Assembly: GCA_002779455.1 (NCBI GenBank) | Contig: PEWM01000102.1 | Span: 12,685 to 42,269 of the forward strand | Direction: 5' to 3' | Source: Deltaproteobacteria bacterium CG07_land_8_20_14_0_80_60_11 | GTDB taxonomy: Bacteria; Desulfobacterota; Desulfobaccia; Desulfobaccales; 0-14-0-80-60-11 | Length of the DNA stretch: 29,585 bases | In this document: positions 123-4,771 of the stretch, one piece after another | Position numbering within the stretch: the stretch's first letter is position 1 | Layout: every line of letters begins with the position of its first letter | Made by a program: the position numbers and the translations under genes | The notes under the pieces: model-generated | Databases searched by the model: none | What the model saw: only the letters and a program-made list of their open reading frames with translations | What the model was told of the DNA's origin: nothing

Positions 123-1985
123 CTAGTCCAGTTCGAACTCCGTGCGCCAGTCTTTAGCTTCCTGCCAGGCAGGCTGGTCCTGCTTGTCGAACCGGTAGTC
201 GCCCATGACCAGGTAGTCCATTTCGGTGCGCATGAAGCACTGGTAGGCGTCTTCCGGGGTGCAGACGATAGGCTCGCCCCGGACGTTAAAGCTGGTGTTG
301 ACGATGAGGCCGCAGCCGGTGTGCTCTTTGAAGGCCCGGATCAGACGCCAGTAGCGTTCGTTGGTCTCCTTGTGCACCGTCTGGATGCGGGCCGAGTAGT
401 CCACATGGGTGATGGCCGGCACGTCGGACCGGAGGTGGTAGAGGCGGTCAAACAGCTCCAGGTTATCATAGCCGGGAGGCAGGGGGTTGCGTCTCGCTTC
501 CCTGACCGGCGCCACCAGCAGCATGTAGGGGGACGGCCGGTCCAGTTCGAAATAGTTGGCCGTTTCCTCGTGCAGCACCGACGGCGCAAAGGGCCTAAAG
601 CCCTCCCGATACTTGATTTTCAAGTTGAGGCGTTTTTGCATCTCCGGGTGCCGGGGGTCCCCCAGGATGCTGCGGTTGCCCAGGGCCCGGGGGCCCCACT
701 CCATCCGCCCCTGGAACCAGCCCACCACCTGCCCCTGGGCCAGGAGGGCCGCCACGTCCCGGACCAGGTCAGCGAAATCGGGGTAGTGCTGATAAGGGGC
801 CTGGCGCCGCCGGGCCACCCGGAGGATGTCATCGGCGCCGAATTCCGGCCCCAGGTAGGAGCCGGCCATGTTGTCCATCTGGGGATTGGGCACCGGGCGC
901 TCGTTGCCCTGCCAGATGTGCCAGGCCGCCAGGGCCGCGCCCAGGGCGCCGCCGGCGTCGCCCGCGGCGGGCTGAATCCAGATGTCTTTGAAGGCGCCCC
1001 GGCGGATCAACTTGCCGTTGGCCACGCAGTTCAAGGCGACGCCGCCGGCCATCACCAGATAGTCGGCCCCGGTGAGCTTTTTGGCGGTGTCCGCCAGGCG
1101 CAGCACGATTTCTTCCGTGGCCTGCTGGATGGCCAGGGCCAGGTTCATGTACCGCTGGTCCAGCCTGCCTTCCCGGGGCCGGCGCGGGAGTCCGAACAGG
1201 GATTCCCACTTGTCGTCCAGGCACATGGTGAGCCCGGTGGCGAAGTTGAAATAATCCATGTTCAGGAGGAACGACCCGTCTTCCCGGAGATCCACCAGTT
1301 CGTCCAGGATCAGGGACTTGAAGCACCCGGTCTGCTCGGCGTCGGGGTTGCCGTAGGGGGCCAGCCCCATGAGCTTGTATTCGCCGCTGTTGACCTTGAA
1401 GCCGCAGTAGTAGGTGAAGGCCGAATAGAGCAGGCCCAGGGAGTGGGGGAAGTGGAGCTCCCGCAGGAGGGTGATTCCGCGGCCCCGGCCAAACCCGATG
1501 GTGGAGGTGGCCCATTCCCCGACCCCGTCCAGCGTGAGGATGGCGGCCTCGGGGAACGGCGACGGATAGAAGGCCGAGGCGGCGTGGGACAGGTGGTGCT
1601 CCGGAAAGAGGGTTGGGGGATTGCCGTCTCCCACCTTGGCCAGTTCTTCCTTGAGCATGGTGCGCATCATCAGCTTTTCTTTGATCCACACCGGCATGGC
1701 CGCGATAAAGCTCCGGAGCCCCCGGGGGGCAAACCCGTGGTAGGTCTCCAGCAGGCGCTCGAACTTGAGGTAGGGCTTGTCATAGAAGGCCACGGCCGCC
1801 AGGTCGGAGAGCCTCAGGCCCGACTCGGCCATGACATAGGCCAGGGCATTGGCCGGGAAGGCGGGGTCGTGCTTCTTGCGGGTGAACCGCTCCTCCTGGG
1901 CCGCGGCGATGATCTGCCCGTTCACCAGGAGGGCGGCGGCGCTGTCGTGATAAAAGGCGGAGAGACCTAAAATCGCTTCGGACAA
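123..1985 (-). CDS. O-carbamoyltransferase, NodU/CmcH/TobZ family (SxtI-like), 620 aa
   Basis: N-terminal ILGLSAFYHDSAAAL, AAAQEERF, EHHLSHAAS, LTLDGVGE, SLGLLYS, GEYKLMGLAPYG, AGGVALN, PAAGDAG; C-terminal GRMEWGPRALGNRSIL, KYREGFRPFAP, NTSFNVRGEPIV. TTG start preceded by AGGGG-like SD. Confidence 0.95.
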   Translation of the reverse strand: MSEAILGLSAFYHDSAAALLVNGQIIAAAQEERFTRKKHDPAFPANALAYVMAESGLRLSDLAAVAFYDKPYLKFERLLETYHGFAPRGLRSFIAAMPVWIKEKLMMRTMLKEELAKVGDGNPPTLFPEHHLSHAASAFYPSPFPEAAILTLDGVGEWATSTIGFGRGRGITLLRELHFPHSLGLLYSAFTYYCGFKVNSGEYKLMGLAPYGNPDAEQTGCFKSLILDELVDLREDGSFLLNMDYFNFATGLTMCLDDKWESLFGLPRRPREGRLDQRYMNLALAIQQATEEIVLRLADTAKKLTGADYLVMAGGVALNCVANGKLIRRGAFKDIWIQPAAGDAGGALGAALAAWHIWQGNERPVPNPQMDNMAGSYLGPEFGADDILRVARRRQAPYQHYPDFADLVRDVAALLAQGQVVGWFQGRMEWGPRALGNRSILGDPRHPEMQKRLNLKIKYREGFRPFAPSVLHEETANYFELDRPSPYMLLVAPVREARRNPLPPGYDNLELFDRLYHLRSDVPAITHVDYSARIQTVHKETNERYWRLIRAFKEHTGCGLIVNTSFNVRGEPIVCTPEDAYQCFMRTEMDYLVMGDYRFDKQDQPAWQEAKDWRTEFELD

Positions 1986-1997
1986 CCTCTTATCCCC

Positions 1998-2147
1998 TTA
2001 AAAAATGGTGTAGATGAAGGGGGCGATGGCCGAACCGCTGGCAAAGACCATCAACGCGCCGAAAAACAAGAGCGTCAGGATGATGGGCAACAACCAAAAT
2101 TTTTTTCTGACCTTGAGGAAGCCCCACAAATCTCGAACGAAACCCAT
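1998..2147 (-). CDS. Small membrane protein, DUF5989/SxtK-like, 49 aa (absent from the supplied ORF track)
   Basis: Hand translation: MGFVRDLWGFLKVRKKFWLLPIILTLLFFGALMVFASGSAIAPFIYTIF. SD AAGGAG upstream of the ATG. Matches the family pattern (RKKxWLxP...APFIYTxF) and sits directly upstream of the carbamoyltransferase. Confidence 0.9.
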   Translation of the reverse strand: MGFVRDLWGFLKVRKKFWLLPIILTLLFFGALMVFASGSAIAPFIYTIF

Positions 2148-2191
2148 AAAACAACTCCTTGGATATTAATCAGGCCGATGGAAAAGCCCAA

Positions 2192-2902: not shown

Positions 2903-3538
2903 ATGACCAAAATGATGCCCGATCTGGAAGGCTATTTCCGGGGCCTGGCGCCGGACAGCGATGCCTTGCTCCTGGAGTTGGAAGTAGAGGCCACCCGCGA
3001 GTCCATCCCCATCGTCGGCCCGGTGGTGGGGGAACTCCTCTTCGTCCTGGCCCGGGCCACCGGGGCCGCCCGCATCCTGGAGTTAGGCGCCGCCACCGGG
3101 TATTCGGGCATCTTTTTGGGCCGGGCCTGCGCCGGGATTAAGGGCCGGGTAATTTCCCTGGAATTGGATGAGGCGATGGCCCAACGGGCCCGGGGCAACT
3201 TCGCCCGGGCCGGGCTCAGCGAGGTGATGGAGGTCCGGGTGGGGGAGGCCCTGAAGTTGATGGCCGAGATGTCGGAGACCTTTGACCTGATCTTCCTGGA
3301 CATCGACAAGAAATCCTACCTGCCGGCCCTGTCCCTCTGCCGGCGGCTCCTGCGACCGGGCGGCCTCCTGGTGGCGGACAACGTGGGGTTCTCCGGGGCG
3401 GCGGATTTCAACCGGGAAATCTTGGAAAACCCCGCCTGGCGCGCCGTCCACCTGCTGAGCTTTCTGCCCCGCCACTCCCCGGAGCACGACGGCCTGGCCC
3501 TGGCGGTGAAGGAGGCGAGGCCGGGGCGGCTCTGGTAG
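2903..3538 (+). CDS. SAM-dependent O-methyltransferase (caffeoyl-CoA OMT/YrrM-like family), 211 aa
   Basis: IPIVGPVVGELL, motif I LELGAATGYSG, FDLIFLDIDK, LRPGGLLVADNV; SD GGAGGG. Confidence 0.88.
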   Translation: MTKMMPDLEGYFRGLAPDSDALLLELEVEATRESIPIVGPVVGELLFVLARATGAARILELGAATGYSGIFLGRACAGIKGRVISLELDEAMAQRARGNFARAGLSEVMEVRVGEALKLMAEMSETFDLIFLDIDKKSYLPALSLCRRLLRPGGLLVADNVGFSGAADFNREILENPAWRAVHLLSFLPRHSPEHDGLALAVKEARPGRLW

Positions 3539-3554
3539 ATATGAGCCTGCACCT

Positions 3555-3614
3555 GTAGGGGCGCACCCATGTGTGCGCCCTCACCCACGGGCGGACCCAT
3601 GGGTCCGCCCCTAC
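3555..3614. repeat. Inverted REP doublet (GTAG...CTAC)
   Basis: GTAGGGGCGCACCCATGTGTGCGCCC, a short spacer, then GGGCGGACCCATGGGTCCGCCCCTAC, between convergent genes. Confidence 0.85.
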
Positions 3615-4771
3615 TGCGGCGCCATGATCCCCTTCAACCGGGCCGCAATGATCCGGGCCGCCAGTTGGGACCCGGCGTCATTGAAGTGGACCAGGTCATA
3701 CAGATATTTTTTATCGGCGGGCACTTCCCGGGCCAGGTCGATGACCATGACCTGATTTTTCCGGCCCACTTCCCGGATAGTGTCGTTGAAGGCGTCATAC
3801 ATCTCTTTGAATTTCTGGTAGCTGATGCCGTGGTCGCGGCCGTCGCGGCCGATGTAGGCCGCCACCACCGGGTCGGGGTTATCCGTGATCCGGTTGGCCT
3901 GGGTCATCAGCACCGGCACGATGCCCCAGGCCTTGCAGGTACAGACAATCGTCTGGAGGCCGGCGGCAAAATCGTGCCTCATTCGTTGCTGGTCAATGAT
4001 GAGCTTCTTGCCCCGGGCGCCGGCGAATTCGTCCTCCTCTTGCCCGGACAGGGTCTTTTCCAGATTTCTGTAGGCATAGTTGAGGTTCGGAATAAAAATT
4101 TCTTTCAGGAGCTTGCCCACCAGCTGCCGCTTTTTCAGGGTCTCCAGGGGCGACCGGGCCGTACGCTTATTCCAGTAGGTCCCTTCGTACAGGAGGGTGC
4201 TCAGGTCGTTGATGTTCTCCATGAAGACCACGACGCCGGGTTTCAGGGGGATCACCTTGTTGATCAGGATATCGATGGCGTTCAGGGTATTGCTGCCCGA
4301 CATCCCGCCGTTGTAGGAATTGATCCTGGCGCCCGTCTCCTGCTCCAGGATCTGCCCCGCCGCGTAAGGAAACCGGTGGTCTGCGTCCACAAACATGCAC
4401 TCGGTGGTGGACCCGCCCAGGAACACGATGACCTTATCGGGCCGGTCATGTTTTTGAGAAGGGCCGATAAAGCCGTTATTATCTATGTCAACCCGGTACT
4501 GCTTGGTGAAGACATTGTCGGTGTAGGGCAGGTGATTGCGGGGAAAAGCCAGCAGCAGGCGGGCGCCGGGACGGTATTCCTTTAACCTGACATACCTTCG
4601 TTCGGCTTCCGCCTCCAGAAAAATCCCGTGCCGGTGGTTATTGAACTCCAGGAATTTCTCCGCGGCGAAGACTATGGCCAGAATGAAAATTAGGGTAACC
4701 GCGGCCAGGGTTTTCTTGGGATGGCGCTGGAACCAGTTGGCGGCGGTCTCGTTTGGGGGGTCGGGCATCAT
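3611..4771 (-). CDS. Membrane-anchored SGNH/GDSL hydrolase-fold protein (SxtL/DltD/AlgJ-like architecture), 386 aa
   Basis: N-terminal TM (KKTLAAVTLIFILAIVFAAE); block I FLGGSTTE (Ser), block II NGGMSG, block III ENINDL, block V DLVHF (DxxH). Start could be 4768. Confidence 0.88.
   Translation of the reverse strand: MMPDPPNETAANWFQRHPKKTLAAVTLIFILAIVFAAEKFLEFNNHRHGIFLEAEAERRYVRLKEYRPGARLLLAFPRNHLPYTDNVFTKQYRVDIDNNGFIGPSQKHDRPDKVIVFLGGSTTECMFVDADHRFPYAAGQILEQETGARINSYNGGMSGSNTLNAIDILINKVIPLKPGVVVFMENINDLSTLLYEGTYWNKRTARSPLETLKKRQLVGKLLKEIFIPNLNYAYRNLEKTLSGQEEDEFAGARGKKLIIDQQRMRHDFAAGLQTIVCTCKAWGIVPVLMTQANRITDNPDPVVAAYIGRDGRDHGISYQKFKEMYDAFNDTIREVGRKNQVMVIDLAREVPADKKYLYDLVHFNDAGSQLAARIIAARLKGIMAPQ

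Follow-up and report, generated by a model that had tools for sequence, protein, structure and literature searches.

We analyzed a 29,585-nucleotide stretch of contig PEWM01000102.1 (the window, by which we mean this entire stretch) from a 2.4-Mb metagenome-assembled genome (MAG) that is 73.5% complete, and which encodes a candidate carbamoyl-transfer module related to the products of the saxitoxin genes sxtI, sxtJ and sxtK. On the minus strand of the window three genes code, in the order of transcription, for an SxtJ-like membrane protein (J), a DUF5989/SxtK-like microprotein (K) and a carbamoyltransferase (I), with intergenic gaps of 85 bp between J and K and 12 bp between K and I, and with a GGAG ribosome-binding site 8 nt upstream of the ATG of K. 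A gene for an SGNH protein lies 959 bp upstream of J on the same strand. All four genes were located where an earlier reading of this DNA, made from the letters without database searches (the sequence-only reading), had put them. That reading proposed that they form a relay comparable to the Dlt system, in which K would be an analogue of DltX that carries a carbamoyl group on a tyrosine, J would replace the MBOAT protein as the membrane conduit and the SGNH protein would pass the group on to an exported glycan or glycolipid. The SGNH gene, although on the same strand, is not co-transcribed with J-K-I, because an O-methyltransferase gene on the opposite strand (2903-3538) intervenes. The features of this region are as follows:

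123..1985, minus strand: O-carbamoyltransferase I of the SxtI/NodU/TobZ type, 620 amino acids, cytoplasmic (PF02543, E 1.7e-93; PF16861, E 2.7e-76)
1998..2147, minus strand: DUF5989/SxtK-like microprotein K, 49 amino acids (PF19451, E 3.4e-25; motif in 262 of 269 homologues)
2001..2018, minus strand: C-terminal hexapeptide FIYTIF of K, which fits the FxYxxF "acyl shuttle" consensus, with Tyr46 as the candidate carrier residue
2233..2652, minus strand: SxtJ-like small polytopic membrane protein J, 139 amino acids (PF19588, 26.8 bits)
2903..3538, plus strand: class I O-methyltransferase, between the SGNH gene and J (PF01596, E 9e-20)
3611..4771, minus strand: SGNH protein with an N-terminal membrane anchor, 386 amino acids (PF13472, E 3e-12)
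4974..6701, plus strand: Wzx-type flippase-like protein, first gene of the adjoining glycan/glycolipid cluster (PF01943, PF13440)

The microprotein K matches the DUF5989 profile over its entire length (profile positions 1-49 of 49; 88.3 bits against a cut-off of 27), and its closest DUF5989 relatives are labelled Syntrophales, Desulfobaccales and Thermodesulfobacteriota. It is laid out as an amphipathic N-terminus, a basic RKK, one transmembrane helix and the tail GSAIAPFIYTIF, which is followed directly by the stop codon. This agrees with the description in the sequence-only reading, as KVRKK occupies residues 12-16, there is a single hydrophobic stretch and PFIYTIF stands immediately before the stop. 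We collected 269 homologues, consisting of the closest 120 and 150 cluster representatives out of 1.8 billion proteins, and found the FxYxxF motif in 262 of them, thereby bearing out the prediction that the tyrosine is conserved in DUF5989. The motif forms the exact C-terminus in 243 homologues and is followed by an apparent read-through or frameshift extension in another 19; the 7 homologues without it are by appearance truncated or frameshifted. In 42 diverse homologues, which were picked among motif-bearing sequences so that 262 of 269 remains the unbiased figure for the tyrosine, K15, K16, W18, P21, F44, Y46 and F49 are invariant, and W8, F10, R14, L19, G30, L32, G38, S39, A40, A42, P43 and T47 are at least 90% conserved. 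The tail G38-S-A-x-A-P-F-I-Y-T-x-F is conserved at this level across Desulfobacterota, Alpha- and Gammaproteobacteria, Cyanobacteria, Gemmatimonadota, Acidobacteriota, Bacteroidota, Nitrospira and Patescibacteria. The core of the transmembrane helix, in contrast, varies freely among hydrophobic residues, so that both ends of K are under strong constraint, namely the basic end that is predicted to be cytoplasmic and the uncharged end that is predicted to lie outside. This orientation is predicted from R14-K15-K16 preceding the helix and from the uncharged tail. A mere membrane anchor would not need such an invariant outer tail.

The tail coincides with the FXYXXF "acyl shuttle" known from DltX and from MBOATs of the PatA type, in which the tyrosine carries an acyl group to the serine of an SGNH protein; NgPatA, for instance, ends in FIYANF (PMC12148441). 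The same 2025 study of PatAB treats the motif as a property of MBOAT systems, with pathways other than Dlt lacking a DltX-like microprotein (PMC12148441). We assessed the specificity of the motif in the genome itself and in a set of comparison loci. For the latter, one genome per species was scanned, which recovered more than 570 loci, and the best-scoring 80 were taken with 10-kb flanks, giving 81 loci with the window; these represent the lineages listed above, the Alpha- and Gammaproteobacteria including SAR11, and the presence of each family was called with iterative hidden Markov models (HMMs) seeded with the proteins of the window. Among the 28,319 stop-to-stop frames of at least 45 amino acids in the whole assembly only two end in FxYxxF, namely K and the single MBOAT of the genome (contig C251:5007-6602), whose 531-residue frame ends in EFIYFQF and which is DltB-like by NCBIfam, albeit under the equivalog cut-off. 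The 8,890 open reading frames (ORFs) of the 81 loci include just three non-K ORFs with this terminus: a fragment of an MBOAT (L052), a microprotein with a single transmembrane segment (L011) and a probable chance match (L021). By these counts, in its own genome and in the 81 loci, the FxYxxF terminus is highly specific to shuttle-type proteins.

The second of these three (L011:2046-2198, plus strand) is a protein of about 50 residues that does not belong to DUF5989, with the basic N-terminus KRFWRKYRR and a C-terminus that ends in PFIYQVF followed by the stop. Its gene directly follows one of the SGNH family and precedes one for an 837-residue protein containing a spermine-synthase-like domain; K, J and I are encoded in the same locus. 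Further families of FxYxxF-ending microproteins may exist.

The enzyme I matches the structures of NovN, GdmN and TobZ over its full length (PDB 3VEN, 7VYJ, 9S2T; E ~1e-85), with a Kae1-like N-terminal domain (PF02543) and a YrdC-like C-terminal domain (PF16861). It is not an equivalog of NodU (131 bits against a cut-off of 1000) and is the sole copy of its kind in the assembly. Enzymes of the TobZ type, such as TobZ and GdmN, convert carbamoyl phosphate and ATP to carbamoyl-AMP and then transfer the carbamoyl group onto a hydroxyl. The protein J is marginally recognized by PF19588 (26.8 bits against a cut-off of 24.4) and firmly by a family HMM derived from the loci (E 5.6e-35), and its AlphaFold2 model is all-helical, with a predicted local distance difference test (pLDDT) score of 91. 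In the AlphaFold Database it is related almost only to clusters named SxtJ or left unnamed, apart from two entries with the automatic label "AI-2E family transporter" and one labelled "phage holin". Members of the J family have about 130 residues, of which only W71 and P97 are conserved at 90% or more.

Across the 81 loci I is present in 76, J in 78 and K in all 81, and the three genes are co-directional, in the orders J-K-I, I-J-K or I-K-J. The SGNH family, seeded with the protein of the window, occurs in 46 of the 81 loci, and its gene density falls from 26.6 per 100 kb within 1 kb of the I/J/K block to 7.8 and 5.9 in the second and third kilobases and to about 2 farther than 3 kb away, which amounts to a more than ten-fold enrichment in the first kilobase. 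In 27 loci a copy with the same orientation is found no more than 300 bp away, and of the 53 loci whose flanks extend for 3 kb or more in both directions, 26 carry an SGNH gene inside that distance. An N-terminal hydrophobic segment and no other is seen in 66 of 69 SGNH members, so that the association with membrane-anchored SGNH proteins, anticipated by the sequence-only reading, is upheld, as is the absence of MBOATs, which are missing from 80 of the 81 loci. By Pfam, 32 of 47 SGNH members match Lipase_GDSL_2, 12 ALGX and 1 DltD. In an unbiased clustering of the remaining ORFs within 6 kb, other families reached 11 loci at most, a GDP-mannose dehydratase/epimerase family being the largest. 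None of the families that recur near I/J/K in the 81 loci is a methyltransferase, and the O-methyltransferase of the window is thus a neighbor rather than a recurrent part of the module. The distribution of the DUF5989 family is patchy, with 70 of the 301 genomes sampled in the phylum of the window having it.

Several of these loci show arrangements of their own. In Trichodesmium erythraeum IMS101 (L053, 9572-20147) J and K precede a tandem array of six co-directional SGNH paralogues, and no carbamoyltransferase was found within the 10-kb flanks. Seven loci from Microcoleus, Lyngbya, Tychonema and relatives (L033, L034, L041, L043, L045, L046, L056) have I-J-K followed by three tandem anchored SGNH paralogues of 420-445 amino acids, which match the reported size of SxtL (1281 bp), in genomes not annotated as toxin producers. 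The streamlined genomes of SAR11, represented by single-cell and MAG contigs of Pelagibacteraceae (L021, L024, L040, L070), keep J-K-I and have, immediately downstream, one or two convergent anchored SGNH genes. The sole locus where both systems adjoin (L052:5791-11400) contains, in order, an SGNH gene, I, J, K, an MBOAT ending in PFLYFQF and another SGNH-like ORF. Frameshifts interrupt several of its genes, and I continues at its end into J without a change of frame, which may be an assembly error; on account of the evident frameshifts of this contig the single I-J frame was not counted as a fusion. Long "K" and "J" ORFs were likewise rejected as natural fusions, being over-extensions of the start codon in GC-rich DNA.

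The SGNH protein of the window has one N-terminal hydrophobic helix (about residues 17-44), and its catalytic domain is predicted to lie outside the cytoplasm. Its catalytic blocks are intact (block I GGS121, block II G156/G159, block III N188-D189, block V D359-x-x-H362), and the sequence-only reading was accordingly right in describing an anchored SGNH protein with intact Ser, Asp and His (S121, D359, H362) nearby on the same strand. In 47 members of the family G119 and S121 are invariant and H362 is 96% conserved. A full-length homologue (L022:8683-9792; 36% identity, E 1e-74) is encoded between J and K in a tight J-S-K-I operon, where S is the SGNH gene, with gaps of 6, 51 and 6 bp, and L047 has the same arrangement; hence, this type of SGNH protein is a bona fide component of the module elsewhere. 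The S...J-K-I order of the window recurs in L049 and L068. We regard the SGNH protein of the window as a candidate terminal transferase.

The AlphaFold2 model of this protein (pLDDT 80) has an SGNH fold by Foldseek (E 1e-8), with a low-confidence helical insertion at residues 199-250. Its best PDB match is CgnD of the crocagin pathway (8a2n, E 1e-8, template-modelling score 0.45-0.56), ahead of generic GDSL esterases. A specific likeness in fold to DltD, PatB or AlgX was considered and dropped, since the search against the PDB returned generic SGNH esterases instead.

Searching its own assembly with the SGNH-family HMM yielded five ORFs, including the gene in the window and the ORF adjoining the MBOAT on contig C251. 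There the MBOAT overlaps the beginning of an ORF that codes for 342 amino acids or more and is truncated by the end of the contig (C251:5007-7606); this ORF matches the SGNH-family HMM and no Pfam or NCBIfam model. As a positive control, the HMM thus picks an ORF that starts within the last codons of the genome's own MBOAT, and the two constitute a classical MBOAT-SGNH pair in the same organism. Each of the two motif-ending proteins of this genome thus has a member of the SGNH family within 1 kb.

These features are reminiscent of the Dlt system (DltA/DltC, the MBOAT DltB, DltX and the SGNH-like DltD), which likewise combines a cytoplasmic ATP-dependent activating enzyme, a microprotein of about 45-50 residues with a single transmembrane segment and FxYxxF as its exact C-terminus, and an SGNH-type protein that is anchored in the membrane and whose catalytic domain is outside the cytoplasm (as predicted here), in the context of cell-envelope glycopolymers. 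Unlike Dlt, the module in the window has neither an MBOAT nor a carrier protein and has a small non-catalytic SxtJ protein in the place of DltB; the group transferred would be carbamoyl, via carbamoyl-AMP, instead of D-alanyl, sequence homology between DUF5989 and DltX is undetectable, and about half of the modules have no SGNH gene nearby. The MBOAT-SGNH systems for O-acetylation, PatA/PatB and AlgI/AlgJ/AlgX, share with it the C-terminal tyrosine hexapeptide (FIYANF in NgPatA, FIYFQF in the MBOAT of this genome, FIYTIF in K) and an SGNH partner of the same broad family, found by the same HMM. However, in PatA/AlgI-type proteins the motif is fused to the MBOAT and is loaded from acetyl-CoA by the MBOAT histidine, whereas K is a free microprotein beside a carbamoyltransferase; the only MBOAT of this genome, with its own fused motif, is on another contig than I/J/K. 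The sxtI-J-K-L block of the saxitoxin clusters is made up of the same four families, and non-toxin cyanobacterial loci show the I-J-K-S order. The window differs from the sxt clusters in that it belongs to a deltaproteobacterial-type MAG, with a glycan/glycolipid cluster and no other sxt genes, and in its S...J-K-I order with an opposite-strand gene in between, as against sxtI-J-K-L. In the sxt papers of 2009 sxtJ and sxtK are listed as unknown, and sxtL (GDSL lipase), which is contiguous with sxtI, is postulated to be a decarbamoylase. TobZ, GdmN, NovN and NodU are the same two-domain enzyme as I, with which the carbamoyl-AMP chemistry is presumably shared, but unlike I they work on their own, without J/K partners, and their substrates are soluble small molecules of the cytoplasm.

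Based on these observations we propose, with about an even chance of being right, that I, J, K and the SGNH protein constitute a Dlt-like group-transfer relay for the carbamoyl group. The cytoplasmic I would activate carbamoyl phosphate with ATP to give carbamoyl-AMP, as is established for TobZ and GdmN and presumed for I, and would dock on the membrane via J and the conserved cytoplasmic N-terminus of K. The carbamoyl group would then be placed on Tyr46 in the FIYTIF of K, with I itself as the likely catalyst because J is without catalytic residues. The resulting O-carbamoyl-tyrosine, an aryl carbamate, would in turn carbamoylate Ser121 of the outward-facing SGNH protein, which would hand it on to a hydroxyl of an exported glycan or glycolipid, itself a product of the adjoining cluster. 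The carbamoylation of serine hydrolases by O-aryl carbamates is classic chemistry. More generally, I-J-K(-SGNH) could define an MBOAT-independent class of trans-envelope group-transfer systems, which uses O-carbamoyl-tyrosine on a free microprotein and is present in a large minority of bacteria, in which SxtJ and SxtK would be subunits of the shuttle and the GDSL proteins of the SxtL type would act as terminal carbamoyltransferases and not as decarbamoylases; to this generalization we give somewhat less than even credence. Its distribution would encompass the 70 of 301 genomes of the phylum, along with SAR11, Cyanobacteria, Gemmatimonadota and Patescibacteria.

Several points weigh against such a relay. 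In the absence of an MBOAT-like funnel it is unexplained how carbamoyl, once activated in the cytoplasm, would get to a tyrosine whose predicted position is outside, because J is small, has an orphan fold and lacks a conserved nucleophile or histidine. No His, Ser or Cys is conserved in the alignment of the J family, its fold has no match in the PDB, and there is no polytopic catalyst of the MBOAT or AT3 type in the module. J therefore cannot be a catalytic stand-in for an MBOAT, and its role as a conduit in place of that protein is the weakest link of the earlier scheme and finds no support in a family of this size and conservation; it is probably a scaffold or docking subunit and not an enzyme, and might serve as a scaffold, a docking site or a passive groove. 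The likeness of K to DltX consists, as far as the sequences go, of a six-residue motif and the architecture: K has no HMM homology to DltX (PF12459), and no Pfam family besides DUF5989 and no PDB chain matched it at E <=10. In the window the SGNH gene is a transcription unit apart from J-K-I, an SGNH gene is missing from the nearest 3 kb in about half of the I/J/K loci, and these SGNH-less loci show no other recurrent partner, their flanks being heterogeneous, with no family in more than 3 of 71 flanking ORFs. The genome has three further SGNH paralogues elsewhere, and the two inspected (C225:5964-7091 and C213:1329-2531), which are anchored, lie among housekeeping genes, near those for a CDP-alcohol phosphatidyltransferase, a LeuA-like synthase, a dihydroorotate dehydrogenase and a Fic protein, with no shuttle-motif protein near either; this weakens the claim that all members of the SGNH family work with a shuttle. 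The set of 81 was taken from the top-scoring end of more than 570 loci and contains some closely related members, such as the seven similar cyanobacterial loci, and O-carbamoyl-tyrosine on a protein was not found reported in the searchable literature. A predicted complex of J, K and the SGNH protein, in which the SGNH chain scored 0.02 against a mark of 0.32, counts neither for nor against the relay. Thus, of the view of SxtK as a DltX analogue in a relay, the motif, the conservation of the tyrosine, the linkage to SGNH genes and the absence of MBOATs are sustained, while the conduit role of SxtJ is not.

An alternative that we consider rather unlikely, although a serious one, is that J and K are membrane-tethering or regulatory subunits, and that I directly carbamoylates a lipid-linked sugar or glycolipid at the inner face before it is flipped; the SGNH proteins would then be independent esterases or acyltransferases, of which glycan loci commonly have genes, and the tyrosine motif structural, for example by packing on J. 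That I/J/K appear self-sufficient in the loci with no SGNH gene within 3 kb speaks for this, as does the ability of TobZ-type enzymes to carbamoylate hydroxyls directly, with no need of a carrier. The conserved N-terminus of K (D/E6, L7, W8, F10, RKK, W18) and the C-terminal tail of J are also what one would expect of a docking site for a soluble enzyme. Tethering alone, however, leaves unexplained why the uncharged tail, predicted to be outside, is the most conserved part of K, why that tail is identical to the MBOAT/DltX shuttle motif, which in this genome K has in common with the MBOAT only, and why anchored SGNH genes are enriched more than ten-fold in the vicinity, some of them between J and K.

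The same SGNH proteins could be seen as hydrolases that act outside the cell to trim or edit ester groups, carbamoyl or others, with the tyrosine of K serving in another role or with a group other than carbamoyl. SxtL is annotated with "decarbamoylation" in the sxt literature, albeit as a postulate only, most members of the family match Lipase_GDSL families only, and in the PDB the model of the window protein is nearer to generic SGNH esterases than to DltD, PatB or AlgX. We nevertheless hold this to be improbable, in that a hydrolase would have no need of a shuttle-motif peptide, 12 of the 47 SGNH members match the transferase-type ALGX model, the same HMM finds the partner of the MBOAT, and an installer and a remover in one tight operon would be uneconomical. 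Least of all do we credit a coincidence, in which a hydrophobic aromatic C-terminus would fit FxYxxF by chance and would be functionally unconnected with acyl shuttles: only three positions of the motif are fixed and the HMM searches show no homology to DltX, yet none of the 28,317 other frames in the genome, the MBOAT aside, ends in this way, the tyrosine is kept in 262 of the 269 homologues, and there is an independent linkage to the SGNH family that partners MBOATs. Such a chance match is thus very improbable.

With regard to the acceptor in the proposed relay, the surroundings of the module provide some hints. An NAD synthase gene lies downstream of I, and on the other side is a glycan/glycolipid cluster with the Wzx-like flippase, several glycosyltransferases and a Wzy_C protein, which may supply the acceptor. 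Further along the window (20320-23520) are genes for a class I/II aminotransferase and then for a MacB-type permease and an ABC ATPase; given these, the acceptor could be a glycolipid instead of a polysaccharide. Scans for promoters and terminators gave counts no higher than chance.

In the literature within our reach, which excluded most subscription journals, we found no paper that mentions DUF5989, and no relevant paper that joins DltX with a carbamoyltransferase or a carbamoyltransferase with SGNH and MBOAT proteins; we accordingly found no prior description of the relay. Even if J and K only anchor the enzyme, the observations would still annotate a conserved three-subunit membrane carbamoyltransferase. 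If the relay is real, it would extend the principle of the acyl-tyrosine shuttle to carbamoyl chemistry and to a machine without an MBOAT, and would provide a function for a very widespread cassette. It would also predict that many uncultured lineages O-carbamoylate their surface glycans or glycolipids outside the cytoplasm.

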